A program made the translations under genes and the position numbers. Shown here piece after piece: positions 3,510-31,424 of a stretch of DNA of 32,000 nt (position 1 is its first letter; every line of letters starts with the position of its first letter). This DNA comes from Crocosphaera subtropica ATCC 51142 (lineage in GTDB: Bacteria > Cyanobacteriota > Cyanobacteriia > Cyanobacteriales > Microcystaceae), in assembly GCF_000017845.1 (NCBI RefSeq), contig NC_010546.1:4770001-4802000 (forward strand). The letters are read 5' to 3'. A model generated the notes under the pieces. That model had not been told where the DNA came from, ran no database searches, and saw only the letters and a list, made by a program, of their open reading frames with translations.

Positions 3510-6500
3510 TTAGATAATAAAGTTACCTAAATTATTCAATTCAGTGGTTTCAACTCCTAAAACAAAAAGGAGTTTTTTCGATTTAGCTTCCTCTGAAAAC
3601 CCATCAGAATCAACGGTCACAAGAGTACCTATACCACGAGAAACAAAACCCAGATAACCTTCTGCGATCGGATCAATCCCTTCAAATTCAATCTCATCTA
3701 AAAGTTGACTCAGATCAATTGTGTCTTTACCGACTTGAAAATCAATCAAGATGTCTCTACCATCTTTTAAACCAGTGTAGACGATAGTATCTTCGCCACC
3801 ACCACTAATAATAATATCCCGACGTTCAAAACCTGTGATTCTATCATTATGGTGAGTTCCTAGAAGAAAATCGCTCCTACGGGTTCCTTCAATGATATTA
3901 GGAGGGGTTTCAAAAGTAAAACTAGCCAACACTGGATCATGATCGCTTGCAAGGGACTCTGTTGCTGCAAATTCAGAATTGATATTCACAATATCAATCT
4001 CAGCATTATTGAATAAACTATCACTGACTAAAATATGATCCAGTTGTTGAGAGTTTCCTTGGAAAATAAAGCTATATCGCTCATCTTCAGCAATATTATT
4101 GACCAAGTTGCTTAAAACCGCATCACCACCTGTGATCGTCTCCTGGCCATTGTTGGTACTTTCTAGGGTTCCTTCTAAAATTGGTAAGGGTGAAACGAAC
4201 TCAAACTCGTTTAAGTCTCCTAACACCACAACATTTCCATTGGGATCGTTACTCAAAACCCCGTCAACAAAATCGTTGACTGCTTGTGCTTGTTCTCTAC
4301 GTTCATTCAGAGAACCATTAACCGTGATATCTTCTTGACGAGCAGCAAAATCTTGTTCAACTCCGAAAATGGGTGCGCTACCCCCTTTTGAGGAAAAATG
4401 GTTATTAATAACGGTGACAATTTCCCCCTGAAATTCAAAGTCAACCGCTAAGGGTAAACGTGCGCCGTTGAAGGGTTCCCCAGATACTTGTGAGCCAATG
4501 GGTTGCACCGAAGCAACGCTCACTTGATTAGGATCATAAAGATAAGCAGTACGAATATTACCCCCAGGTTGACCCCCACTTTGATTATTGGTGATAAAGG
4601 TGTTATCGATAAATTCGTATTGAGGACCACCAGCATCAACGATAGCATCTACCAACCGTTGCAGCGTTTGATCAGCCGAAACAGTTCCATCGTCAACGGA
4701 ACCACTGTTATCTTGGATTTCCTGTAAACCAATAATATCGGGACTGTTGAGATTATTGATAATTTGTTGAGCAATGGTATCAAAGCGGCCATCCGCTACG
4801 TCCGTATCTCCGTCGTTATCGTTGGGATCAAGGTTCAATACATTGTAGGTAGCAATGGTTAGGTTATCCACTGTATTGTTAATCGTGGTGGTTTCTGGAG
4901 TTAACCCGGCAGATTGAATATTCCCAGTAAAGTTAACAGTTGGCACAATTTGGAAATTACCAAAGTCGTAACTAATCACCCCAGTCACATCCCCTAAACT
5001 GTCTCCCGTATTCACTTCTGGATTATCAAAACCAGACACATCAAAATCGGTGTCAATTTGGATTTTTTCGGGGTTGAAATCATCAGAACTAATATTCAGG
5101 GTTCCTCGTTGACTAATTCCGGTGGTGTTGCTGCCTTGGTTAGTAACTGCGAAAATTTCCCCAAAACGATTAGTCCCTGACACAGCGACTAAATCCTCTG
5201 CGGTGACTAACATCCCTTCTAAGGACTCGAAAAAGTCAATGCCATCATTAACCGGATCAAAAGATGTAAAGGCATCATCATCGATATGAGTAGAGGGTGG
5301 AATTCGTCCACCAGTACCGATTACAGTGGCTACAGGAAGCGCATTCCCTTGAGAAAGGGTAGAAATAGTCGGACCACTAATTTGAGTGGTGGATAGGTTA
5401 CCGGTGCTAACACCACCAGGAACAAATTCTGAAACCGTTCCCGTCACTTCTAATTCATCTCCGACCATAACCCCCGGTGCGCCATTGGTAAAGACGAAAA
5501 TCCCATCTGAGGTAGCTATGTCACCATCTCCTGCGGGATCTTGTAGATAAAATCCGTTATTATCCACTGCGGTAACAATCCCTGTGGTGGTAACGGTCGT
5601 CCCTTCTAAAGTAGAAGTGTGACTGGTTCCTTGAATCTCGTAGATAAACGTCATTTCAGCAGGGGGAGGCGTAGAAGACTCGTTAACACTGCCGGGGGTT
5701 GGGGTTTGAGCAATAAAAGACCCTGTTGCATCGGGAACCCGACTGAGGGAGTCGTTATCGTCTCCATTGGGCCCTGAGTTTTCGTTAAATTGGATAGTTT
5801 GTCCTAAACCATTGAGTAACTCTGCGTCATCAGCATCGTTGGTGCCATAGGCGATCGCATCGATTAAATTACTTGAGGTGACGGGGGTTCCACTAGGGAA
5901 GTCTGAAGCATCCCCTGCGTATAAAGCAACCGCATCCGCTCCATTTTGCAGACTATTGGTGGTAAAGGCCACTAAATCAACATTCGGCACCATAGCACTG
6001 CCAATGACAAAAAATCCTTCAGGGTTAGTGGTTTGACCGTCAAGATCGATGGCATTGTAAGATACATCGCCGTTCCCGTTGTACAAGACCACCACTAAAC
6101 CATCCAGGGAGGTATTACCCACGCCACCGTCATAGAGTTCGATAAATTCAACAGAATCGGTTCCAGGGGTATCGCTATCAATTTCATTAATGATTACATT
6201 GGCCACAGAACCCCCTGTGGTTGCTGAGGTTGGGGTGTTAGCTGACCCTAAAAAGAAATCGCTGATTACCCAATCACTGGCTTGATCTGTATCTACGCCA
6301 TCGTTCACCCGTCTAGCGCCGGCCGGGAAAAAGGAACCATCTGGTCCAATCACTGGAGTCCCAAAGAAAAAGGTATCCCCGATATCCCCATCCCTTAGTG
6401 CAACGGCATCAAGAACTGCCTCACTCCCTGTCACTGTAGTCCCAGACAAACTGCTGGTTTCCACTAGGGCAAAGGTTTGACTACTATTTTCCAGAAAGTT

Positions 6501-7268
6501 ATCACTAATCTCAAGATCAGGGGTAACGCCATAGTTAGTTCCTAAACCGATGGGATTTCCAATCAAAAAAAAGCTGTTATCGCCGATGACATGGGTAGCA
6601 TCAAAATCAATGCGACGGTCAATGGTTCCTTCTAGTCCACTGTCCCCTTCAACAACAATTAAACTCAAGCCATCGAGAGAGGTTTGAGGAATGCCAAACA
6701 GTTCGATAAATTCGGTATCGTCGGTTCCTGTGTGACTGGCATATATTTCATTGAGAACGACTGTAGACTTGGCATTGACAAAGGTTTGATGACTATTAAT
6801 CTCACCAGGGGTATCGTCAGTTTGCACTGTCCAGGTGAACTCCTCTGCTTGACTACCGATTCCGATGAGTTGCAAGGACGCACCGACACGAGTATCGCTG
6901 GATTCTAGGACACCAATATCAGTGGTAGTTAACCCTTCTGCTGGACCAGACACGGCGGTAAAACTGCCTTCATAGCTCAAAAATTGAACAACATTACCGC
7001 TATTATCAATTAAGGCAATGCCATCAGGGGAACCGTTTTGAATACCGTTAGTGGGAAAGGGGATAGTAACAAATCCAAACCCGTTACGAGGATTGGTAAA
7101 GGTTTGTCCCGATAAATCAATCGTATTGTAGGGAACCCCCGTTGCACCATTGTATAAAATTAGGCTCCAACCTGTGAGATCCAAACCGAGTAAACCGACT
7201 AATTCAATAAATTCGCCACTGTCTGTTCCACTATTATCATAGTGAAATTCATTGATAAATACACTCAT
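3510..7268 (-). CDS. nucH: Extracellular nuclease of the ExeM/NucH type: three lamin-tail domains, an OB-like domain, an endonuclease/exonuclease/phosphatase (EEP) domain and an RTX-like C-terminal tail
   Basis: 1252-aa ORF. LTD signatures INEFHYDNSGTDSGEFIEL, LNEIYASHTGTDDTEFIEL and INEIDSDTPGTDSVEFIEL. OB-like segment IYEIQG...GFYLQD. EEP motifs TYNVLNL, GLQEIQDN and SDHDPV. C-terminal repeats GTHHNDRIT, SGGGEDTIV and DTIDLSQL. No signal peptide. Confidence 0.85.
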   Translation of the reverse strand: MSVFINEFHYDNSGTDSGEFIELVGLLGLDLTGWSLILYNGATGVPYNTIDLSGQTFTNPRNGFGFVTIPFPTNGIQNGSPDGIALIDNSGNVVQFLSYEGSFTAVSGPAEGLTTTDIGVLESSDTRVGASLQLIGIGSQAEEFTWTVQTDDTPGEINSHQTFVNAKSTVVLNEIYASHTGTDDTEFIELFGIPQTSLDGLSLIVVEGDSGLEGTIDRRIDFDATHVIGDNSFFLIGNPIGLGTNYGVTPDLEISDNFLENSSQTFALVETSSLSGTTVTGSEAVLDAVALRDGDIGDTFFFGTPVIGPDGSFFPAGARRVNDGVDTDQASDWVISDFFLGSANTPTSATTGGSVANVIINEIDSDTPGTDSVEFIELYDGGVGNTSLDGLVVVLYNGNGDVSYNAIDLDGQTTNPEGFFVIGSAMVPNVDLVAFTTNSLQNGADAVALYAGDASDFPSGTPVTSSNLIDAIAYGTNDADDAELLNGLGQTIQFNENSGPNGDDNDSLSRVPDATGSFIAQTPTPGSVNESSTPPPAEMTFIYEIQGTSHTSTLEGTTVTTTGIVTAVDNNGFYLQDPAGDGDIATSDGIFVFTNGAPGVMVGDELEVTGTVSEFVPGGVSTGNLSTTQISGPTISTLSQGNALPVATVIGTGGRIPPSTHIDDDAFTSFDPVNDGIDFFESLEGMLVTAEDLVAVSGTNRFGEIFAVTNQGSNTTGISQRGTLNISSDDFNPEKIQIDTDFDVSGFDNPEVNTGDSLGDVTGVISYDFGNFQIVPTVNFTGNIQSAGLTPETTTINNTVDNLTIATYNVLNLDPNDNDGDTDVADGRFDTIAQQIINNLNSPDIIGLQEIQDNSGSVDDGTVSADQTLQRLVDAIVDAGGPQYEFIDNTFITNNQSGGQPGGNIRTAYLYDPNQVSVASVQPIGSQVSGEPFNGARLPLAVDFEFQGEIVTVINNHFSSKGGSAPIFGVEQDFAARQEDITVNGSLNERREQAQAVNDFVDGVLSNDPNGNVVVLGDLNEFEFVSPLPILEGTLESTNNGQETITGGDAVLSNLVNNIAEDERYSFIFQGNSQQLDHILVSDSLFNNAEIDIVNINSEFAATESLASDHDPVLASFTFETPPNIIEGTRRSDFLLGTHHNDRITGFERRDIIISGGGEDTIVYTGLKDGRDILIDFQVGKDTIDLSQLLDEIEFEGIDPIAEGYLGFVSRGIGTLVTVDSDGFSEEAKSKKLLFVLGVETTELNNLGNFII

Positions 7269-7403: not shown

Positions 7404-7446
7404 TTTAACTTGAAAAATTAAACTTTCCTTGAACTTTTCTTAACTT
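7404..7446 (+). promoter_or_regulatory. Pho-box-like array of direct 8-bp repeats (candidate SphR/PhoB site) upstream of the nuclease gene
   Basis: TTTAACTT (7404), ATTAAACT (7417), CTTGAACT (7428) and CTTAACTT (7439). The last three are exactly 11 bp apart. The published cyanobacterial consensus is PyTTAAPyPy(T/A). The units read on the strand opposite to the gene. Confidence 0.4.
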
Positions 7447-7556
7447 TTAAAAATCACAAAATATGGCATTACAAAAATTAGTAAAGATTAAAAAAGACCA
7501 GAGAATGGTAGTTGATTACCTTATCTCTTGGTCCAATCGTCTTGATTCTATGTGCT

Positions 7557-13152: not shown

Positions 13153-15090
13153 ATGAAATTATCTATATTTACTTATCCTATCAGTTTGATTATCTTATGT
13201 TTAACTCCATTAATAAGCTGTTCTTCTGGTCTTGTTAACACAACAATCCTAACACCAAAACTTAGCCAAATGTCTTCTCTAAAATTGCCTGAAGTTGAGC
13301 CAAAATACCGTAATCAATGGACAGCAGCATTAGAAAAAGACTTTCAAAAAAGAGCCTTAGAAATTATTGATTTTTATGCCGATAGAAAAAGTTACGGTAA
13401 TGCCTACGGAGAAAATGAAAAACGGTCTTATCCTAGGGCAATGTTGGATTTTTTAGCAGGAAATGAAGAGAAGGCGATCGCTTTTTTACAACAAGAAGAC
13501 CCTCAAGCTGAACGACATCAACATACGGACGGCATTGATTACTATTATTGTTTTACGTTAAAAGGACAAATTCGTAAGTATTTCTTATACGGAAAATTTC
13601 TCGAACCTGACTATAAACAACGAATGTTTGAAGGGGCAAAAAAATGGACATCTGAAGATCCTTTAATGCGTCCCCACCCTGTTTACGGGTTAGGAGATGG
13701 TAGTGGTAGAGACTGGGATATTAGTCGCCGAGGAAGATGGGTTGATGGTAGAAATACAGACAATTTAAGGGCGATGAGAGAAACATCTGTTTACTTGATG
13801 GCTGAAGAAACAGGTAACGAAGAAACACGGTTAATTTATAAAGAAAAAATCCAGCGATATGTCTGGGCTTTATATCATATTGGTATGGGAGAATGGGACT
13901 CAGAAGTGTATCACGGACATACGTTTGCACCCTATCTAAATCTTTATGATTTTGCCAAAGATCCTGAAGTTAAATTATTAGCAAAAGCAGCTTTAGATTG
14001 GATGTCTGTGGCTGCTGCCATTAAATATTATCGAGGAGGTTGGGGAGGCCCAGTAAAACGAGATTATGGAGGGGGAAATGTAGCGATGGGGTCATCTTCT
14101 GCTAGAACTTTTTGGTTATATTTTGGCGATACTCCTTTACCCAATCATCACCCTGAAGAGGATACTTTATTCTTAATTACCAGTTCCTATCGTCCCCCTT
14201 TAGCGGCGGTAAAATTAGCCCATAAAGACTTTAAAAAACCTTTAGAAATTCTTAGCACTAAACCGTTATATGAAAATTGGAAACCTGGGAATTCTGATGA
14301 ACCGGGTTACTGGGAAACGCAGTTTTTTGGCAATACTTATCAGATGGGAAGTTTAGCTGCTAAATTTGCTGATGGTGATGTTGCCCCGTTTAAATTAATG
14401 GCTGATAATTCTCAGCGAGGGGTTGATTATTTTGTGGTTAATACGGGGAAAAAGTTGGTTAGGCCAGGTAAACAACCAGGGGATCAAATAGGACAATATC
14501 GTAATCTTTTGATTTGGTTGCGTCCTCCCTCTCAGTCTAATTTTAATTTTCAAATACCTAACAATTCTCTAGCAGAAATTGAGGAGAATATTTGGTTTTT
14601 AAAACTTGAAAAAACTTGGTTAGCAGTGCATCCTATTAACTTAAAATCTTACCAAGAAGTGACTAATAATAAAGATAAATATTTACAAGAAAGATTTTTA
14701 ACAGCAGAAAAAAATCAGGAAAACTTTTACGGGTTCGTTTTAGAAGTTGGGGAAAAAGAAACTCATGGAAGTTATGAACAATTCAAAGAAAATAGCAAAA
14801 AAAAGAGTCAGCTTAATTTAGAAAAGCTGACTAGAGGAATTGTCAATTATCAAGGAACTAACGGACAAACCTTACAATTAATTTACAATACGCTTAATCT
14901 TTTACCGATGATTATCCGTAATGGCGACTTACATCAATGGTCAAAAAATTTTGCCCTTTATAACAGCCAAACTAAAGATAAGCAACCTATCTTTCTGGGT
15001 TACAAAGAAGGAAAACTACAAATCAAAGCAGGGGGTTATGAGTTTACAACTGAAGTTAGTAATGAGAGAAAAGTTGTGGTTTCTCCCTAA
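13153..15090 (+). CDS. Hypothetical lipoprotein of unknown function
   Basis: 645-aa ORF starting 7 nt after the preceding gene. Lipobox-like signal LTPLISCSSG. I recognised no family motif. Confidence 0.6.
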   Translation: MKLSIFTYPISLIILCLTPLISCSSGLVNTTILTPKLSQMSSLKLPEVEPKYRNQWTAALEKDFQKRALEIIDFYADRKSYGNAYGENEKRSYPRAMLDFLAGNEEKAIAFLQQEDPQAERHQHTDGIDYYYCFTLKGQIRKYFLYGKFLEPDYKQRMFEGAKKWTSEDPLMRPHPVYGLGDGSGRDWDISRRGRWVDGRNTDNLRAMRETSVYLMAEETGNEETRLIYKEKIQRYVWALYHIGMGEWDSEVYHGHTFAPYLNLYDFAKDPEVKLLAKAALDWMSVAAAIKYYRGGWGGPVKRDYGGGNVAMGSSSARTFWLYFGDTPLPNHHPEEDTLFLITSSYRPPLAAVKLAHKDFKKPLEILSTKPLYENWKPGNSDEPGYWETQFFGNTYQMGSLAAKFADGDVAPFKLMADNSQRGVDYFVVNTGKKLVRPGKQPGDQIGQYRNLLIWLRPPSQSNFNFQIPNNSLAEIEENIWFLKLEKTWLAVHPINLKSYQEVTNNKDKYLQERFLTAEKNQENFYGFVLEVGEKETHGSYEQFKENSKKKSQLNLEKLTRGIVNYQGTNGQTLQLIYNTLNLLPMIIRNGDLHQWSKNFALYNSQTKDKQPIFLGYKEGKLQIKAGGYEFTTEVSNERKVVVSP

Positions 15091-17845: not shown

Positions 17846-18211
17846 ATGTTTGGAAGACAACCAAAAGAAGAAAATTCTACAGACAATATAGAGGTTCCTG
17901 ATATTATGTTTCCTTCAGAATCTGAACTAGAAGAGGCTTCCCAAGATGACACAGAATTAAGCAAAATTACTAATAGACAAGAATCATCTATTGATGAGGA
18001 AAATCCTGAAGTTGTCACAATAGTTGAGAGAATTAGTGCTATTGTCTCTCCTTATTTTATTGTCGTAGTAGGACTCATTTTATCCGATGATAACTTTTGG
18101 TTAGGGTTACTCTTAATTGCTGTAGGAATACTCTCTTTGTTGAAGATTTCTTTAACGGATATTGTCGGATTATTTATAGAAATTAAAGAAGGATTCACTT
18201 CAGATGATTGA
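17846..18211 (+). CDS. Hypothetical small membrane protein (acidic N-terminus, two predicted TM helices)
   Basis: 121-aa ORF 35 nt downstream of the oxidoreductase gene. Hydrophobic segments YFIVVVGLIL and LGLLLIAVGILSLL. Confidence 0.5.
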   Translation: MFGRQPKEENSTDNIEVPDIMFPSESELEEASQDDTELSKITNRQESSIDEENPEVVTIVERISAIVSPYFIVVVGLILSDDNFWLGLLLIAVGILSLLKISLTDIVGLFIEIKEGFTSDD

Positions 18212-19422: not shown

Positions 19423-20583
19423 TTACAGTCGTTTCCAATTAAGTTGATTATTTTCGTTATCCCAATGCCATTGTAATAAATTAGCAGGTTGACCTGGTGA
19501 CATTGCTGGAAGTTTAATCGCTTTTCTAGGGGATTCTGTGGCTAAAGCGATCCCATTCCCTATGGGGCATAATTGCCATTCAACTAAGTTTTTCACTCCT
19601 ACTAATAAGGGTAAAGTTGTTCCTGCTAATGTCCCGTTAGCCAGTCTTGCTGTTCCTTGTTTTACTTCAATTTGTCGGTTATCCCAAGGATAAACCCCAT
19701 CTCCTAAACCAATGGGGGCCAAAGCATCACTCACTAAGAAAACGCCTCTTTCATAAAGACTGCCTCTAAGTAATAATTCAATCATGGTCGGACAGACATG
19801 ATTACCATCAGCAATTAAACCACAATAAACATTAGAATTGATTATTGCTTCCCCTAATAATCCAGGTTGACGATGATGTAAAGGAGGCATTGCATTAAAG
19901 GCATGAGTCACCATTGAAGCACCCATTTCAAACGCTTTTTTAGCCTCTTTTGCATTGGCTTGAGAATGACCTAAACTAGCAACAATTCCCCTAGAAGATA
20001 GATAAGGAATTACCTCATTAGTTATATCTAATTCAGGAGCTAAAGTAATAATTTTAACGATAGATTCATAATTACCTAATAGCCATTCTATGGCTTCAAC
20101 CGAAGGGGTTAAAAGATATTGAGCGGGATGTGCGCCTTTTTTTTCGTGATTTAAAAAAGGTCCTTCTAAATGGACTCCTAACACTTTTGCTGTTGGAACG
20201 TTTTCTTCAGTTTGAATCTTTATAAACCGTTCAAGAATAGAGAGCGATCGCTGTATATTGTCTACTGAGGTTGTTACTAAGGTAGGCAAAAAGCCATCAA
20301 TTCCTTCTTGCCATAAAAATTCACAAATTTGGTGTAACTTGGGTAGGTGTTTTTCTTGGATGTCTGTAAAGGGCAATCCTAATCCCCCATTTATTTGTAA
20401 ATCAATCCCTCCTAGGGAGATCCAGTCTCCTTTCGCATCATAAACTTTATCCCCTGTTTTAGTTGAATCTATTGCTCCCATTCCTTGGATATCTTCGATC
20501 TTTCCTTGCTCATTAATCAGGATTTTTTGGTGTTCTTGATATCCATGTAATTTAGCATTAATGATGGTAATATCTTTTAGCAT
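19423..20583 (-). CDS. nagA: N-acetylglucosamine-6-phosphate deacetylase
   Basis: 386 aa. Amidohydrolase motifs GGIDLQINGG, HLEGPFL, TLAPE, THAFNAM and DGNH. Confidence 0.85.
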   Translation of the reverse strand: MLKDITIINAKLHGYQEHQKILINEQGKIEDIQGMGAIDSTKTGDKVYDAKGDWISLGGIDLQINGGLGLPFTDIQEKHLPKLHQICEFLWQEGIDGFLPTLVTTSVDNIQRSLSILERFIKIQTEENVPTAKVLGVHLEGPFLNHEKKGAHPAQYLLTPSVEAIEWLLGNYESIVKIITLAPELDITNEVIPYLSSRGIVASLGHSQANAKEAKKAFEMGASMVTHAFNAMPPLHHRQPGLLGEAIINSNVYCGLIADGNHVCPTMIELLLRGSLYERGVFLVSDALAPIGLGDGVYPWDNRQIEVKQGTARLANGTLAGTTLPLLVGVKNLVEWQLCPIGNGIALATESPRKAIKLPAMSPGQPANLLQWHWDNENNQLNWKRL

Positions 20584-24440: not shown

Positions 24441-24480
24441 TTTAATAAAATTTAATATTTAACTTAAAATCTTTTAACAA
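24441..24480 (+). promoter_or_regulatory. Weak Pho-box-like repeats upstream of the alkaline phosphatase gene
   Basis: TTTAATAA (24441), TTTAATAT (24451), CTTAAAAT (24463) and TTTAACAA (24473), spaced 10-12 bp on the gene strand, 84-123 bp upstream of ATG 24564. The background is AT-rich, so chance matches are likely. Confidence 0.25.
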
Positions 24481-24563
24481 TCTATTACTGTGGGCTTAAT
24501 TTAGCCTTGGTAGCTTAATCACTGTGCTTGATTAAACTTTACATTGCGCAGCAGATTAAAGAC

Positions 24564-27500
24564 ATGGCCAACAATAATAGTGTAATTTTCATTCATCCTG
24601 ATGGAACCAGTCCTTCCCATTTTATGGCTGGACGCTTGGTTTCCGTCGGTCCTGATGGTCTTCTTAATTGGGATAGGATGACCAAGGCAGGGGTTTACCT
24701 AGGACACATGGAAGACCAACTGGTGGGGACTTCTAATGCAGGGGCTGTAACTCATGCCTTTGGCATTAAAGCTTTCTCTGGTAGCTACGGTTTAGACGAA
24801 AACGGGAATCCTTACACTTCTCTTTCTGGTCAAGAAGGCATGACCATTATGGAAGAGGCGATCGCAGCCGGAAAAGTTACTGCCGTGATCAACTCTGGAT
24901 TCATTGCCGAACCCGGAACCGGGGTTTTCCTGGCAGATACCGAAAATCGAGGTAATGTAGAAGAAATCACCTTAGAAATCGTCGAATCTGGGGTGGATGT
25001 GATTATGGGGGGTGGTGAAATTCACTACTTACCCGAAGGAGTGACGGGACGCTTTGGAGAAGAAGGAATTCGCGAAGATGGACGGAACCTGATCGAAGAA
25101 GCCCAAGCAGACGGTTACACCGTGGTTTACACCCTCGAAGAGTTAGCCAATTTACCCGCTAATACCGAGAAAGTTTTAGGGATTTTTGCAGCAGAAGACA
25201 CCTACAACGACACCACAGAAGCTAGATTAAAAGAGCAAGGCTTTGAGGATGAACAAGGCAATTTAATCCTCTATGGTCAACCCGGAAACGAAAATCCTCC
25301 CACCGTTTCCCAAATGCTAGAGGCAACTTTAGGGTTAGATATCTTTCAAAATCCTGAGAATGGAATGTTTGTGGTGCTAGAAGAAGAAGGCACCGACAAC
25401 TTTGGCAACAATAATAACGCAGCCGGCACCATCGAAGCCGTTTTACGAGCCGATGCGGCCATCGGTGTGGCTCAAGACTACATCGATAATGTTAACCCTC
25501 ATACTTTGTTAATCACGGCCGCCGATAGTGATGGGGGTGGTTTAGAAGTCGATGATCGTTCAGGGGAAACCGTCGGCACCACCAGAGTACAACCCCCCTT
25601 CGATCCCGATCCCAGAGTTCCCTACGATGGCACTACAGGGAACGATACCGCTCCTTTTGTCACCGGCCAACCGGACGCTAATGGGGACACCTTTGAATTT
25701 GGAGTGTTATGGTCTGGAAACCCCGACGTAGCAGGAAGTATTGTTTCTAAAACCTACGGGTTAAACGCCGAGAAACTCCCGGCCACCGTGGACAACACAG
25801 GGATTTATCGCTTGATGTACGAAACCCTATTTAATGTTGCTTTAGATGCACCAGAAGGGATTCCTGATGAGATTCCTGAACCCCCTGCACCCACTAAAGA
25901 GACAGGAAACGTCATCTTTATCCATCCCGACGGCACCAGTCCCTCCCATTATGCGGCAGCTCGTTTTTCCTCAGTGAGTCCCGATGGTCGTTTGAACTGG
26001 GATAATATGACCGATGCCGGGGTTTATCTCGGTCACATGGACGATCGCATTGTTGGCACTTCTAATGGGGGTGCAGTGGTTCACGCCTATGGGATTAAAC
26101 CCTATGCTGGCAGTTACGGGTTAGATGCAGATGGGAACCCTTACACCTCCTTATCCGGGTTGGAAGGAACCACCATTATGCAAGAAGCGATCGCAGCAGG
26201 GAAACCCACGGCAGTGATCAACTCTGGCTTTATCGCCGAACCCGGCACCGGTGTTTTCCTCTCAGCAGCAGAAAATCGTAGCAACGTTCAAGAAATTACT
26301 CTAGAAATTGTTGAATCCGGTGTTGATGTGATTATGGGGGGTGGTGAAATTCACTATCTACCCGAAGGAGTAACGGGACGCTTTGGAGAAGAAGGAATTC
26401 GCGAAGATGGACGGAACCTGATCCAAGAAGCCCAAGAAGATGGTTATACCGTGGTTTACACCCTCGAAGAATTACTCAATTTACCCACGAATACCGAGAA
26501 AGTCTTAGGGATTTTTGCAGCAGAAGATACCTACAACGACACCACAGAAGCTAATTTAGTTGAGCAAGGTTTTGTCAATGAAGACGGCAGTTTAATTCTC
26601 TACGGTCAACCCGGTAACGAAAATCCTCCTACCGTCGCCCAAATGCTAGAAGTCACGTTAGGGTTAGATCAATTTGTTAATGCCGAAGACGGCTTCATGG
26701 TGGTTCTCGAAGAAGAAGGGGCCGACAATTTTCCCAATAATAATAATGGGGCAGGTGCCATTGAAGCAACGCTACGGGGAGATGCTGCCATTGGAGTAGC
26801 CCAAAACTTTGTTCGCAATGTTAACCCCAATACGTTAGTCTTAACGGCTGCTGATAGTGATGCTGGTGGTTTAGAAGTGGATGACGTATCCGGTGAAACT
26901 GTGGGGAGCGTCACTGTTCAGGGTCCTTATGAAAACCGAGTTCCCCGTGACGGTGTGGAAGGGAATGATGGCACTCCTTTTGTCACGGGCGCACCGGATG
27001 CCAATGGGGATACGTTTGAATTTGGCCTAGCTTATGCCAGCACCACCGATGTCGCAGGTAGTATTGTTGCTAAGTCATTCGGTTTAAATTCTGACCTCTT
27101 AAAAGCCACAGCAGACAATACGGATATGTACCGTATTATGTACGAAACCCTGTTTGGGGTAGCTCCTGAAGACGTAGAACGATTTGATCCTGTCGCCTTT
27201 GGGTCTGCTGAAGATGACTTTTTTGATACGGTGATCTCTGGTAGTGACTTTGTGGGTGCAGCGAATCAACTTCTCTTTGCTGGCAGTGGCAATGACTATG
27301 TGGACGTTTCTCAGACTCCCGATGCGTTTAATCGTATTGACTTGGGCAGTGGTGATGATCTGTTCTTTGCTGGAAGTGGCGATCGCATTCTAGCTAGTTC
27401 TGGAGATGATATTCTCTTTTTGGGTTCTGGTGGTGATAATGTCGTTACAGGAGGTTCCGGAAGCGATCAATTCTGGCTTCTTACTGACTCAGAAGATTTA

Positions 27501-27701
27501 CCAACTATGGCGAATACTATCACTGATTTTGCCATTGATGAGGATGTCATGGGCTTTGGTGCTACTGATCTTGATTTTGATCAGCTAACCTTAACCCAAG
27601 AAGGTAATAGTACAGTGATCAACGCTTTAGGACAGGATTTAGCCATCTTATCCAATATTCAAGCCAGTGATTTAAGTGCTTCTGATTTTGTCTTTGCTTA
27701 A
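24564..27701 (+). CDS. phoA: Atypical alkaline phosphatase with a tandemly duplicated catalytic domain and an RTX-like C-terminal module
   Basis: Each half carries IFIHPDGTSPSH, VGTSN(A/G)GAV.HA.GIK (compare PhoA TDSAASATA), VVLEEEG.DNF and TAADSD.GGLE. The C-terminus has AGSGNDYVD, LGSGDDLFF and GGSGSDQFW repeats. I prefer the ATG at 24564 (MANNNSVIF) over the TTG at 24528. No signal peptide. Confidence 0.8.
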   Translation: MANNNSVIFIHPDGTSPSHFMAGRLVSVGPDGLLNWDRMTKAGVYLGHMEDQLVGTSNAGAVTHAFGIKAFSGSYGLDENGNPYTSLSGQEGMTIMEEAIAAGKVTAVINSGFIAEPGTGVFLADTENRGNVEEITLEIVESGVDVIMGGGEIHYLPEGVTGRFGEEGIREDGRNLIEEAQADGYTVVYTLEELANLPANTEKVLGIFAAEDTYNDTTEARLKEQGFEDEQGNLILYGQPGNENPPTVSQMLEATLGLDIFQNPENGMFVVLEEEGTDNFGNNNNAAGTIEAVLRADAAIGVAQDYIDNVNPHTLLITAADSDGGGLEVDDRSGETVGTTRVQPPFDPDPRVPYDGTTGNDTAPFVTGQPDANGDTFEFGVLWSGNPDVAGSIVSKTYGLNAEKLPATVDNTGIYRLMYETLFNVALDAPEGIPDEIPEPPAPTKETGNVIFIHPDGTSPSHYAAARFSSVSPDGRLNWDNMTDAGVYLGHMDDRIVGTSNGGAVVHAYGIKPYAGSYGLDADGNPYTSLSGLEGTTIMQEAIAAGKPTAVINSGFIAEPGTGVFLSAAENRSNVQEITLEIVESGVDVIMGGGEIHYLPEGVTGRFGEEGIREDGRNLIQEAQEDGYTVVYTLEELLNLPTNTEKVLGIFAAEDTYNDTTEANLVEQGFVNEDGSLILYGQPGNENPPTVAQMLEVTLGLDQFVNAEDGFMVVLEEEGADNFPNNNNGAGAIEATLRGDAAIGVAQNFVRNVNPNTLVLTAADSDAGGLEVDDVSGETVGSVTVQGPYENRVPRDGVEGNDGTPFVTGAPDANGDTFEFGLAYASTTDVAGSIVAKSFGLNSDLLKATADNTDMYRIMYETLFGVAPEDVERFDPVAFGSAEDDFFDTVISGSDFVGAANQLLFAGSGNDYVDVSQTPDAFNRIDLGSGDDLFFAGSGDRILASSGDDILFLGSGGDNVVTGGSGSDQFWLLTDSEDLPTMANTITDFAIDEDVMGFGATDLDFDQLTLTQEGNSTVINALGQDLAILSNIQASDLSASDFVFA
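24579..27161 (+). repeat. Intragenic tandem duplication, period 1329 bp (443 codons): unit 1 at 24579..25838, unit 2 at 25908..27161
   Basis: VIFIHPDG at codons 19 and 462 of the track ORF. GATTATGGGG at 25001 and 26330. The units are colinear throughout, with one 2-codon indel near the end. Confidence 0.9.
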
Positions 27702-28113: not shown

Positions 28114-31113
28114 TTAAGCAAAGACGAAATCGGCTGCACTCAAAACAGAAAGGTCAGTATTCAGTAAAATGGCTAAATCTTGGTCAAAGGCATTGATCAT
28201 GGTACTACTGCCCTCTTGAGTTAAGGTTAATCCATTAAAATCAAGCTCAGCCGTCGCAAACCCGATAACATCTTCCCCAGAGGTAAAGTCAGTAATGGTA
28301 TTTGCTTCAAGAGGTAAGTCAACCGTATCGGTAATAAGCCAGAATTGATCCATTCCAGCCCCCCCGGTAATGACGTTATTACCGCCACCAGAGCCAACCA
28401 ATAAGACATCATCACCTGATCCGGCCAAAATGCGGTTATCAGTACCACCGAAGAGATAATCATCTCCCGAACCCAAGTCAATGCGGTTACCACCAGGTGC
28501 AAAGGTAACATCTACTATGTCATCCCCAGAACCAGCAAATAACTTTTGTTCCTCACCGATAAACCCTTTTTCGTCAGGCACTTCCGTATCAAAATAATCA
28601 TCATCAGAGGTTCCAAACACGAGATCAGGAACTTCTGGTTCAGCTTCCAGTTGAGACTCAACAAACTGAGAGAGTCCGGGTAAATCATCCGTATTAATTA
28701 AATCCACCTCAGCTTCGTATAGGGGTTCCCAAACACTAGGACCATCTTTAGGTAAATTCCAGAATCTGACGATTTTATCTTCCCCTTGGACTTGTTCAAC
28801 AATATTCGCTAATTCAGCTTGAGTATCTTCAGGAATAGTGCCGATTCCATCCCAAGCTAAGTCCCCGTTGAAAAAATTATTCCAATTATCACTAATGAGA
28901 GGCATAAAGCCAGGATCTTCATTAGTACCGATGTCACTTCTGCGACCATCATAACCGGCATAACGGACTTCCTGACTTTCCATAAAGTCTCTGGGACGGT
29001 TGCCAGAAATAATGGGGGTCACAGCACCAGGCGTAACCGTATAGCTTCCAGTTCCATCTTGCTCGTAAGTGGTAAATAAACCAGGAGACTCGGTTTGATA
29101 TTCAGTTAAAACTTCATGCAGTCTTTGATAAGTCGAAAGTCCATCACTCTTGATATCAACTAAGAGGGTTAAAGAGGTGCCATCTTCGTAAACACCTCCA
29201 TTATTAAACTCTTCATATAAATCTTGGAGAGGATCAAGATAAAGTTCTTCTATGGTGGGTAAGGTAGCAGGATCATCAACGGGATCATGAGCAACCCGTA
29301 AATTGTTGTTATCGTCAGGATACAGCCAGATATCTGATTCTACACTCACGAAACCGTAGCTCAGAGCATCTAATAAAGGAAATAGATGTTCATAATCGTT
29401 GTGAGCGTGGGTACGAGGCAAAGATTCGCTTCTAGGAGTAGGAATTTCCGCTAAAAAGGCTAACTGTCCCCCTTGAACTAAGTTTTCCTCAGCAATGACT
29501 CCATCTCGTAAACTGTGTGCTTGAGTATCGAAGAGGAATAAATTACCGTTTTCCCGTCCGAATAGTTCTGTTACATCTAAAATACCAGAAGATTCCCAGT
29601 TGCCAATATCATCAGGAGAGGGATCGGTTTGAGCAATGGGATCAACTGGTACGCCAGAACGATCCATTTGAGCAATACGGGTTAATTCTCCAGTTTCGGG
29701 GTCTAATTCCCAAATAGAAGCTTCTTCCCCTGATGTTCCCCCAAACAGAGAACCAGGAGAGGTAGAACGGTCTTCATTAATATAAATTTTACCGTTGTCT
29801 GCCCAGTCTAAGTTATCAGGACTCCGTAACCCAAAATCAGGATCGCTAAATTCTCCATTCCCTGCATCGTCCCCATCGTATAAGATGTCAAGGTCAGCAC
29901 TAAGATCACTAAAATCTACCTCAACTTTGTAGGTGGTTCCCCAGTTATCGTCAGGGAAACGTCCACCCCGTCCCGTAGAGGCTAATACCGCTTCTGTACC
30001 ATCTTCGGGGTTGGTCGCTACGTCTTCAGGGCGAGAAAATTGAAATGCTCCTGCTTCGGCTACTAAAAAGTCTTGATAAATTTGGGTGGCGAAGCCTAGG
30101 GTATCGTAATCAAAAGTACCATCTCCATCTACATCGATGCCATCAAAAACACCATCCCCATCAGCATCAATATGAACACTTGCGTCAGTTGCGTCAATGA
30201 CTCCATCACTGTTGATATCTGCTGCATCAAAGATACCATCACCATTTAAGTCAGTATCAAAAACTAAATCTTCACGGTAATGTTCGATTTCTACAAAGCT
30301 ACCAGATAAGCTATTTCCAGTGCCGTTAAATCCGGCAGGATCAGGGTTATTATCGGGATCAGCTTCGTTGTCTGTATCCCCCACTTCTCCATCGGGAACC
30401 CAAGCATACAATTTACCCCCTGTTAACCCGTTCCGTTCTAGAAACCCTGCATCTACAGTGGTGTCTTTTTTCCCAACGTATAGTAATAGGGGTGCTGCTT
30501 CTCGGTCATCTCCCACTAAAATAGCCACTTCTTCGGTGTTACCGATATCGAGTTGGGTAACATTTTCCCATGCTGCCCTTCCTAACCAGGGAACCGCATA
30601 AAGGGTATTGGTAGCCACATCTAGGGCAAACTCTGTACCCCCAAAAGTTTCTTCTCCAGTGAAGTAAATACCATCAACAAAGCCATACCCTTCCCCAAAC
30701 TGGTGCGCTTCGATGTAAATTGAGGAACAGAGACGGTTAATTCCTTCAAATTCTAGGTCAGAGGCTTCGTCTACTTCTTCTCCAGCACGATTGATAATCG
30801 TATCATAAGCCAAACCTGCATCAATCACTTCTAAGGTTTGTTTATCAAAGTCAAAATAACTGACTCTGGCACCGGTTAAAGCGGTTCCATTGGCTAACGT
30901 ATAAGCATAACCTGAACCACTGGTTAATTCGTGGTTGGTTAAAACTCTAACGGTATTTTCATCGAGTTCAAATGCGCCAATACCATCCAAAATACCAACA
31001 GGAGTATAGTCTCCTGCTGTGGTTGGAATGGTTTCACCAATGGTAACCAATGGTTTAACGTCATAGCCATTTAGACCGATCATTTGAGCCGGTTGAGTGG
31101 TGGTAAATGCCAT
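28114..31113 (-). CDS. Multidomain secreted phosphoesterase: PhoX-like (DUF839) beta-propeller with a DxDxDG Ca-loop insert, a PLC/GDPD-like (AIM6-type) phosphodiesterase domain and an RTX-like C-terminal module
   Basis: 999 aa. PhoX-like motifs NRLCSS...IYFTGEE, WLGRAAWENV, FSRPEDVATNP and SPDNLDWADNGKIYINED. Ca loops DLNGDGIFD, DINSDGVID, DADGDGVFD and DVDGDGTFD. PLC-like THAHNDYEHLFPLLDALSYGFVSVESDIWL..LRVAHD. The tail is paralogous to that of the phosphatase at 24564..27701. No signal peptide. Confidence 0.7.
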   Translation of the reverse strand: MAFTTTQPAQMIGLNGYDVKPLVTIGETIPTTAGDYTPVGILDGIGAFELDENTVRVLTNHELTSGSGYAYTLANGTALTGARVSYFDFDKQTLEVIDAGLAYDTIINRAGEEVDEASDLEFEGINRLCSSIYIEAHQFGEGYGFVDGIYFTGEETFGGTEFALDVATNTLYAVPWLGRAAWENVTQLDIGNTEEVAILVGDDREAAPLLLYVGKKDTTVDAGFLERNGLTGGKLYAWVPDGEVGDTDNEADPDNNPDPAGFNGTGNSLSGSFVEIEHYREDLVFDTDLNGDGIFDAADINSDGVIDATDASVHIDADGDGVFDGIDVDGDGTFDYDTLGFATQIYQDFLVAEAGAFQFSRPEDVATNPEDGTEAVLASTGRGGRFPDDNWGTTYKVEVDFSDLSADLDILYDGDDAGNGEFSDPDFGLRSPDNLDWADNGKIYINEDRSTSPGSLFGGTSGEEASIWELDPETGELTRIAQMDRSGVPVDPIAQTDPSPDDIGNWESSGILDVTELFGRENGNLFLFDTQAHSLRDGVIAEENLVQGGQLAFLAEIPTPRSESLPRTHAHNDYEHLFPLLDALSYGFVSVESDIWLYPDDNNNLRVAHDPVDDPATLPTIEELYLDPLQDLYEEFNNGGVYEDGTSLTLLVDIKSDGLSTYQRLHEVLTEYQTESPGLFTTYEQDGTGSYTVTPGAVTPIISGNRPRDFMESQEVRYAGYDGRRSDIGTNEDPGFMPLISDNWNNFFNGDLAWDGIGTIPEDTQAELANIVEQVQGEDKIVRFWNLPKDGPSVWEPLYEAEVDLINTDDLPGLSQFVESQLEAEPEVPDLVFGTSDDDYFDTEVPDEKGFIGEEQKLFAGSGDDIVDVTFAPGGNRIDLGSGDDYLFGGTDNRILAGSGDDVLLVGSGGGNNVITGGAGMDQFWLITDTVDLPLEANTITDFTSGEDVIGFATAELDFNGLTLTQEGSSTMINAFDQDLAILLNTDLSVLSAADFVFA

Positions 31114-31183
31114 AATTTTTTTTCGTTTACAGGATGGATCGAAGGTTTAAAGGCAGCATTTACCAAAGATTTTCACAACAAGC

Positions 31184-31213
31184 AGATTAATAGCAATTGA
31201 ATACTATTAATCT
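31184..31213. promoter_or_regulatory. Perfect 10-bp inverted repeat (candidate operator) upstream of the PhoX-like gene
   Basis: AGATTAATAG (31184..31193), a 10-nt spacer, then CTATTAATCT (31204..31213), 71-100 bp upstream of the ATG at 31113. Confidence 0.3.
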
Positions 31214-31424
31214 TTATTTTATAATTGGAATCTAGAACAATTTGAGGTTTCTTGTTAAACCTTTTGGTACAGGAAGAAAGCCCTCTTCCTGTGCTGCCTT
31301 TCAACTTTTACAAGACTATGCTAGATGATAACTCACAAAAGAAGGTTAAGAAGAAAATAAGCTTTGGTAAGATCATCTCTTGCATTTTTGATAAAATTAA
31401 ATATTTTAGAGAGGGAATAGAATT

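Follow-up and report, generated by a model that had tools for sequence, protein, structure and literature searches.

A PhoX-type propeller, an AIM6/GDPD_2-type phosphodiesterase domain and a serralysin-type tail in one polypeptide: cce_4643, a candidate secreted phosphate-scavenging enzyme of Crocosphaera subtropica

In Pseudomonas, glycerophosphocholine is degraded outside the cell by two secreted proteins, the canonical GDPD GlpQ and the phosphatase PhoX (Lidbury et al., 2017; PMC5438359). The PhoX of P. fluorescens (3ZWU, 4A9V, 4ALF) is an Fe3+/Ca2+ alkaline phosphatase with a beta-propeller fold, which ligates Fe3+ via a Cys thiolate (PMC4223295). A comparable two-step extracellular logic is proposed here for the gene cce_4643 of Crocosphaera subtropica ATCC 51142, located on the minus strand at 28114..31113 of a 32,000-nucleotide stretch of contig NC_010546.1 (positions 4,770,001 to 4,802,000; hereafter the window, to which all coordinates refer). 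In contrast to the two separate Pseudomonas proteins, cce_4643 specifies a single polypeptide with a diesterase domain of another family and one putative secretion signal. With a probability of about 55%, we regard its product as a Pho-regulated, secreted diesterase-monoesterase exoenzyme for phosphate starvation, built from three modules: a PhoX-type propeller (residues 1-555), a middle domain of phosphodiesterase type (MID, residues 556-831) and a C-terminal tail related to the repeats-in-toxin (RTX) region of serralysins (residues 832-999).

The open reading frame (ORF) is complete, with 999 codons and a stop codon, and its product is identical at 999 of 999 residues (100%) to cce_4643, whereas the ortholog of C. 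chwakensis CCY0110 shows 94% identity. The databases name it differently, RefSeq as ‘alkaline phosphatase PhoX’ and UniRef as ‘Altered inheritance of mitochondria protein 6’ (AIM6). A preliminary description of the window, made from the letters alone, had already placed a 999-residue minus-strand ORF at this position and divided it into domains by quoted motifs. All of these motifs were located in the translation, those of the PhoX part being LCSS (128-131), FTGEE (151-155), GRAAWEN (178-184), RPEDV (361-365), SPDNL (431-435) and INED (445-448), and those of the phosphodiesterase part HAHNDYEH (569-576), VESDIWL (591-597) and VAHD (607-610). The nucleotide ranges given for residues 286-336 (30106..30258), 565-815 (28669..29421) and 832-999 (28117..28620) likewise convert correctly. 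The product is strongly acidic, with 197 Asp and Glu against 41 Lys and Arg residues.

Residues 1-555 (29449..31113, minus strand) are a divergent but genuine PhoX-family six-bladed beta-propeller and a predicted phosphomonoesterase. The Pfam model PF05787 scored 36.9 bits against a cut-off of 24, covering residues 175-464 only, and a direct phmmer search of residues 1-555 against the PDB matched no solved PhoX, which marks the domain as a distant relative. A family profile trimmed to the domain (A3) reached P. fluorescens PhoX (3ZWU, 4AMF) at E 1e-8; it replaced an earlier profile built from whole multi-domain proteins (A2), which was noisy and found 3ZWU at E 9e-4 only. An AlphaFold2 (AF2) model of the domain had a mean predicted local distance difference test score (pLDDT) of 91.3, and its best Foldseek match was P. 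fluorescens PhoX 4A9V at E 1.2e-20 with template modelling (TM) scores of 0.59 and 0.57, the next propeller following at E 3e-5, i.e. 15 orders of magnitude worse. The earlier assignment of this part to PhoX/DUF839 is thus upheld by Pfam, profile and fold searches.

To align the domain with canonical PhoX, a profile of eight canonical sequences (3ZWU and seven others) was compared by hhalign with 135 domain copies of the cce_4643 clade, the sequence and numbering of 3ZWU having been rebuilt from a Salinivibrio PhoX aligned to the PDB chain. The alignment had a probability of 97.7% and an E-value of 1.8e-12 and covered residues 4-539; a HMMER local alignment against canonical PhoX reached the C-terminal half only. 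All aligned acidic, Arg, Cys and His residues of ligand type that are invariant in canonical PhoX were identical in cce_4643 and 94-100% conserved across the 135 clade domains. In 3ZWU numbering, D69, N88/E90, C179, E193/E194, R269, E273, D291/D292, R385/E387, D479, D494, E532 and H551 correspond to D43, N60/E62, C129, E154/E155, R179, E183, D202/D203, R361/E363, D433, D448, E507 and H533, respectively, of cce_4643; the counterparts of the acidic, Asn and Arg residues in this list show 96-100% conservation within the clade, and nearly all of the listed residues reach 100%. The Cys129 codon lies at 30727..30729 (minus strand) and specifies the predicted equivalent of Cys179, the Fe3+-ligand Cys of P. 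fluorescens PhoX. The pairing of the two Cys residues appears with the eight-sequence profile, whereas hhalign with just two canonical sequences put C179 in a gap; relative to canonical PhoX, an 11-residue insertion follows Cys129. C129 is the sole Cys among the 999 residues and is invariant across the 135 domain copies, of which 116 contain exactly one Cys. The Cys and the acidic ligands of PhoX, to which the preliminary description had pointed as decisive, are therefore present in a proper alignment.

One could nevertheless suppose that the propeller is no phosphatase but a diverged DUF839 paralog engaged in binding or in some other hydrolytic chemistry, MID alone being catalytic. PF05787 does gather many paralogs (PMC12594817), the clade shares merely ∼14–24% identity with solved PhoX, with which the direct phmmer search found no match, and it has neither a counterpart of canonical residues 196-262 nor a Tat signal. 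We consider this very unlikely, since the domain keeps essentially the full set of invariant ligand-type residues including the lone Cys, matches the PhoX fold 15 orders of magnitude above any other propeller, and belongs to a clade in which cyanobacterial genes of Okeania, Anabaena and Crocosphaera carry the annotation phoX.

The N-terminus differs from that of canonical PhoX. No RR motif and no hydrophobic stretch of a twin-arginine translocation (Tat) or Sec signal was found at the N-terminus of cce_4643 (MAFTTTQPAQMIGLNGY), and the ORF cannot be extended upstream, whereas RR motifs were present in all seven canonical PhoX sequences fetched from plasmid records. Compared with P. fluorescens PhoX, cce_4643 has a C-terminal tail of RTX/type I secretion type in place of Tat, and in addition an array of DxDxDG loops and a fused phosphodiesterase. 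Plasmid gamma of Nostoc sp. PCC 7120 (L090:1436-3790) encodes a 784-residue Tat-type PhoX that has the motif RPEDIE in common with the Crocosphaera clade, as well as SPDNL in the variant form VDNL; in evolutionary terms this protein may link canonical PhoX to the cyanobacterial clade with RTX tails.

The propeller carries four tandem DxDxDG calcium-type loops in a surface loop at residues 286-336 (30106..30258, minus strand), the individual D-x-[DN]-x-[DN]-G motifs beginning at residues 286, 299, 316 and 327. When the cce_4643 product was shuffled 20,000 times, four or more such motifs fell within 55 residues with a frequency of 5e-5. In most relatives the corresponding segment is 33 residues long with no or one loop, whereas in seven Crocosphaera-type sequences it comprises 67 residues with three to four loops; judged by this pattern, the array is a lineage-specific expansion of one ancestral surface loop and no foreign insertion. 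The loops had been described as EF-hand-like and as interrupting the propeller. The four motifs are real and their position is right, but what lies there is the propeller's own loop in expanded form, and the calcium assignment holds at the level of the motif only, as the EF-hand and dockerin models stayed below threshold and AF2 confidence in the segment was low (mostly coil, pLDDT 53-71). Identity with a dockerin or EF-hand was accordingly rejected (EF-hand_5, E 0.011, 15.6 bits against 25.9; Dockerin_1, E 0.045); the segment also gave a below-threshold match to GEVED (E 0.006) and a PDB dockerin match at E 0.73. The loops are probable Ca2+ sites.

MID (28621..29448, minus strand) is a TIM-barrel phosphodiesterase domain of the phospholipase C (PLC)-like/GDPD superfamily and falls in its GDPD_2 (AIM6-like) branch, as concluded from its AF2 model, Foldseek matches and family relationships. 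The model had a pLDDT of 95.6 and a predicted TM score (pTM) of 0.92. All 38 Foldseek matches at E ≤ 1e-3 belonged to the PLC-like superfamily or its close analogues, with the GDPD 4OEC as the best (E 4.6e-6); among them were GDPD, spider and bacterial sphingomyelinase D (SMase D)/phospholipase D (PLD), lyso-PLD and PLC-beta, at E-values from 5e-6 to 1e-3 and TM scores of ∼0.5. A phmmer search of MID against the PDB gave no meaningful match. The GDPD_2 model PF13653, which is just 30 residues long, scored 20-21.3 bits on MID, below its cut-off of 27, but it matched 30 of 30 aligned MID relatives at E ≤ 1 (best E 2.5e-11), many relatives carry precomputed PF13653 annotations, and MID is 50-75% identical over its full length to standalone bacterial proteins of the family. 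By these sequence comparisons, its membership in the GDPD_2/AIM6-type family is unambiguous. The model of canonical GDPD, PF03009, did not match cce_4643 at E ≤ 1 and matched only one of the 30 relatives (E 0.018), and MID is therefore not classed as a GDPD of the GlpQ/UgpQ type. The earlier PLC-like/GDPD_2 assignment, made for residues 565-815, is borne out by these searches with the slightly wider boundaries used here.

The first catalytic His motif is predicted at residues 569-573 (H-A-H-N-D, 29395..29409, minus strand), its partners being E592/D594, H609 and D653/K655. Across the 30 MID relatives H569, H571, E592, H609, D653 and K655 are invariant and D594 is conserved in at least 90%. When MID was compared with GDPD by hhalign, these conserved residues fell in register with the GDPD motifs HRG, ExD, HD and DxK across the full length; as the alignment statistics are weak (E 0.003), the register rests on the agreement of fold and motifs. 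An Okeania-type GDPD was the partner that aligned, weakly, over its full length, whereas with the GlpQ-like domains of PhoX-phytase-GDPD proteins no usable alignment was obtained. The His pair of the PLC-like fold, also singled out in the preliminary description, is thus found at H569/H609, with the metal ligands likewise in register. The TIM barrel and this register (a beta-1 His, ExD metal ligands, HD and (D/E)xK) are shared with GlpQ/UgpQ and with SMase D/PLD enzymes, but the first motif of MID reads HxHNDY in place of the HRG of GlpQ/UgpQ-type GDPDs. On sequence and model, MID looks catalytically intact and metal-dependent.

The MID family is large: a word-indexed search yielded 1,630 members and an exhaustive search 2,411 representative clusters. 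It consists mostly of standalone proteins of ∼300 residues with signal peptides, some of which have PEP-CTERM tails. Actinomycetota, Bacillaceae, Planctomycetota, Rhodothermales, Alphaproteobacteria and Nostoc were represented among the matches listed. All residues invariant in the GDPD_2/AIM6 family (PF13653; yeast Aim6 and bacterial ‘PI-PLC/GDPD family proteins’) are kept in MID; unlike typical members, however, cce_4643 has the PhoX domain in place of the signal peptide and an RTX tail thereafter. No substrate of any GDPD_2/AIM6 member was found in the literature searched. In two planctomycete-like metagenome contigs (L094:4700-6870 and L096:4732-6870) the standalone MID gene starts 5 nucleotides past a GFO/IDH/MocA (inositol-dehydrogenase-like) oxidoreductase gene, which itself follows a PQQ-propeller gene; this linkage may point to a sugar- or inositol-phosphodiester as the substrate of the family. 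In a cyanobacterial contig (L093:4796-6957) a NAGPA (‘phosphodiester glycosidase’, PF09992) gene immediately precedes the standalone MID gene. In Nostoc spp. (L009, L010, L037) the tblastn matches of standalone MID genes set in at query residue 513, still within PhoX and ∼40 residues before its C-terminal end, which could be what is left of an earlier fusion or else a fortuitous match to the region of the signal peptide.

The tail (28117..28620, minus strand) consists of a degenerate RTX beta-roll and a serralysin-type C-terminal secretion domain ending in ...SAADFVFA, a putative type I secretion signal. It passed the Pfam cut-off for Peptidase_M10_C (21.9 bits against 20.7), stayed just under that for HemolysinCabind (22.6 against 23), matched serralysin RTX domains of the PDB at E ∼1e-4 and gave partial matches to the NCBIfam models serralysin and RTX_toxin. 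A hemolysin-type pore-forming RTX region was rejected, as the matches to the repeat region were only partial. With the C-terminus encoded by the neighbouring PhoA-type gene the tail shares 61% identity (E 7e-58); the secretion module of that gene lies at 27195..27698 (plus strand) and ends in ...LSASDFVFA where cce_4643 has ...LSAADFVFA. The preliminary description had called this RTX-like module shared, and rightly so. With the serralysin C-terminal domain the tail shares degenerate GGxGxD-type repeats, a beta-sandwich region thereafter and an acidic, then hydrophobic end (DFVFA), whereas the cargo of cce_4643 is two phosphoesterases instead of a metalloprotease, its repeats are degenerate and no transporter genes are found nearby. 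The lack of an N-terminal signal, the serralysin-type tail and the extreme acidity together indicate type I secretion, which on these sequence features is the most likely export route. Such a tail implies export in the unfolded state and extracellular metal loading, unlike Tat-exported P. fluorescens PhoX.

The combination of barrel and tail also invites comparison with membrane-attacking exoproteins, in which case MID would attack the (lyso)phospholipids of foreign cells or of vesicles in the manner of a PLD or SMase D, as part of an RTX-type lytic or competitive factor with PhoX harvesting the head-group phosphate. The fold matches of MID to spider and bacterial SMase D/PLD, to the lysophosphatidylglycerol PLD of Staphylococcus aureus and to lysoplasmalogen PLD equal those to GDPD, and the RTX tail is in place; moreover, the P-limited exoproteome of Synechocystis is dominated by an RTX protein cluster under PhoB induction (PMC11126600). 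The TM scores of ∼0.5, however, cannot separate the branches of the superfamily, and the cce_4643 product has no hydrophobic or acylation-type pore-forming region, its tail being short and of serralysin, not hemolysin type, and it is strongly acidic throughout. Furthermore, spider-type enzymes yield cyclic phosphates, which PhoX would not cleave. We therefore consider a role in membrane attack improbable.

Within the known theme of PhoX-phosphoesterase fusions, cce_4643 represents a rare and uncharacterised form. Among the 120 closest relatives of the protein, PhoX stood alone in 62, was followed by a tail of the cce_4643 type in 53, and was joined to MID in five, two of them with the cce_4643-type tail and three with other tails. 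A scan of 185,579 species genomes revealed the PhoX-MID fusion at no fewer than two loci, in Dapis sp. and in one marine cyanobacterial metagenome-assembled genome; as Crocosphaera itself was not among the matches listed, the number of species with the fusion is to be read as a minimum. PhoX-MID members also exist in Okeania. The taxonomic survey called for in the preliminary description thus places the fusion in a few marine cyanobacteria. In contrast, fusions of PhoX with GDPD (PF03009), phytase-like (PF13449), PhoA (PF00245) or 5'-nucleotidase (PF02872) domains are common in cyanobacteria. The multi-domain forms, i.e. PhoX with phytase-like and GDPD domains (∼1,300-1,570 residues), PhoX with PhoA and PhoX with RTX, have a PhoX of the cce_4643 clade (55-78% identity) and often the same tail, but their partner is a canonical GDPD, a phytase-like domain or PhoA, whereas that of cce_4643 is a GDPD_2/AIM6-type barrel. 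The literature searched (AIM6, GDPD_2 and PF13653; PhoX-GDPD fusions; cyanobacterial type I-secreted phosphatases; cce_4643) yielded neither a paper naming cce_4643 nor a description of the PhoX-MID-tail architecture. To this extent the earlier view of an undescribed architecture stands; its novelty is reduced by the presence of the gene in the databases and by the many cyanobacterial fusions of PhoX with other phosphoesterases.

The same distribution bears on whether the two enzymatic domains work together at all. Both might be active on unrelated substrates, the fusion serving only to export two enzymes with one signal at fixed stoichiometry. In a neighbour-joining tree, the MID-bearing PhoX domains stand beside nearly identical MID-less PhoX-RTX paralogs in Okeania and Dapis (P0007/P0025 and P0006/P0028); such near-identity points to a very recent gain or loss of the module and suggests that the phosphodiesterase was acquired or lost recently in these genera, which is more easily reconciled with mere co-secretion than with a co-adapted pair. 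The same tail is found on varied cargo (PhoX alone, PhoX-MID, duplicated PhoA), indicating that the modules are freely shuffled, standalone MID genes occur elsewhere without linkage to a phosphatase, and the linkers between the domains are short and give no sign of a channel. On the other hand, PhoX has repeatedly been joined to phosphodiesterase-type domains (GDPD, MID) specifically and not to random exoenzymes, and the product of a diesterase is by definition a substrate of PhoX (PMC5438359), so that the domains would be functionally coupled even without channelling. Simple economy of secretion is thus a rather doubtful explanation in our view, and a coupled diesterase-monoesterase is preferred.

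A Pho-box-like element of three CTTA-type 8-mers with ∼11-bp spacing (TCTTACCAAAGCTTATTTTCTTCTTAACCT) is located at 31343..31372 (minus strand), ∼230 nucleotides upstream of the start codon of cce_4643. The consensus used for scoring reportedly goes back to work of Suzuki in 2004 and of Su in 2007, and with 21 of 24 the element had the top score in the window. It is identical in C. chwakensis, and conservation rises from the element onward: the leader of ∼250 nucleotides from element to start codon (31114..31372, compared with C. chwakensis L091:4680-5003) is about 96-97% identical, whereas the DNA just upstream is clearly more diverged, which suggests a long conserved 5' untranslated or promoter region. 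The phoX gene of Trichodesmium is regulated by a Pho box and induced in P starvation (PMC6411698), and cce_4643 may likewise be under Pho regulation, as judged by its upstream sequence.

Taken together, the proposed enzyme would act in three steps. The C-terminal RTX/serralysin-type module would mediate export independent of Sec and Tat, most likely by a type I system, followed by Ca2+-dependent folding outside the cell. The metal-dependent MID would then cut a phosphodiester to a phosphomonoester, with H569/H609 as predicted general acid/base pair and E592, D594 and D653 as predicted metal ligands. Finally, the PhoX propeller would free orthophosphate from the monoester made by MID, and from other monoesters, at a predicted Fe3+/Ca2+ cluster ligated by Cys129, D43, E62, E154/E155, E183, D202/D203, E363, D433, D448 and E507. 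It is reasonable to suppose, as the preliminary description did, that the fusion could in this way convert a diester to phosphate in one step; the product of the diesterase domain may be handed over to the propeller.

Several observations weigh against this proposal. The family profile of MID found no structure in the PDB, and the relationship of MID to characterised enzymes is remote (TM ∼0.5; hhalign against GDPD, E 0.003). The literature searched contains no biochemical or expression report for the cce_4643 product or any GDPD_2/AIM6 member. The neighbourhoods of four standalone MID genes were heterogeneous and showed no link to the Pho regulon, the neighbours being a GFO/IDH/MocA oxidoreductase, NAGPA and SGL. 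In the propeller, the canonical segment at about 196-262, with the invariant E251/D253, has no counterpart in the profile alignment, and the cofactor of cce_4643 PhoX may therefore differ. With respect to export, no type I secretion genes (ABC transporter, membrane-fusion protein, TolC) were found among the ORFs of the window or in the flanks of related contigs, although such genes may be located in another part of the genome. As type I substrates leave the cell unfolded, loading of Fe3+ would have to take place extracellularly, in contrast to Tat-exported PhoX (PMC4223295). Finally, the Pho-box match is a consensus match in AT-rich DNA, and its conservation is uninformative, since the two species share ∼96% identity over the entire leader.

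The neighbouring gene (24528..27701, plus strand) is convergent to cce_4643 and encodes a tandemly duplicated PhoA-type alkaline phosphatase, with two stretches matching Pfam Alk_phosphatase (E 1.6e-61) and halves that are 77% identical to each other. A Pho-box-like site before it (24473-24502) was among the top-scoring sites in the window. At the syntenic site of C. chwakensis no PhoA gene was found and the fusion gene directly abuts cobQ, which marks a recent insertion or deletion. A PhoA-RTX gene comes next after the fusion gene of Dapis, and this phosphatase context, together with the Pho-box-like element, speaks for a role of the fusion in phosphate supply. Elsewhere in the window, an ORF at 3510..7268 (minus strand) encodes a 1,252-residue protein in which lamin-tail (LTD) and endonuclease/exonuclease/phosphatase domains are combined. 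An N-terminal signal is not obvious, and the RTX-like C-terminal region (DFQVGKDTIDLS) differs from the tail of cce_4643. A further top-scoring Pho-box-like site lies ∼150 nucleotides upstream of the ORF (7417..7447), the product of which may, possibly as a nuclease, represent a third enzyme secreted for P scavenging. Pfam gave no match at E ≤ 1e-3 for the ORFs at 13153..15090 (plus strand, 645 residues), 17846..18211 (plus strand, 121 residues) and 19423..20583 (minus strand, 386 residues).

Crocosphaera is a major oceanic nitrogen fixer, the growth of which is limited by phosphorus and iron, and diesters make up a large fraction of marine organic phosphorus. Coupling of a secreted diesterase to a PhoX monoesterase would broaden the range of dissolved organic phosphorus usable by the cell, and the fusion offers a concrete functional context for the AIM6/GDPD_2 family, which comprises ∼2,400 sequence clusters in bacteria and fungi. 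The Fe dependence of PhoX underlies current ideas on Fe-P co-limitation, and a cyanobacterial PhoX clade that has type I tails instead of Tat, yet has kept the Fe-ligand Cys, is relevant to whether such enzymes require iron and in what way. A bolder and distinctly tentative possibility is that cce_4643 is a natural ‘phosphate-mining’ bifunctional exoenzyme, in which the AIM6/GDPD_2 diesterase feeds the attached PhoX, and that Tat was dropped for type I secretion with the Cys-ligated Fe3+/Ca2+ cluster, or a substitute for it, being assembled outside the cell in iron-poor seawater. Were this so, it would provide the first functional assignment for the AIM6/GDPD_2 family and an example of domain-coupled mineralisation of organic P, and would challenge the need of PhoX for cytoplasmic iron loading, with consequences for models of Fe-P co-limitation in diazotrophs. 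Interest in the fusion would grow if the coupling or the extracellular assembly of the Fe-Ca cofactor were demonstrated, for which ATCC 51142, a cultured model strain, is a tractable host.

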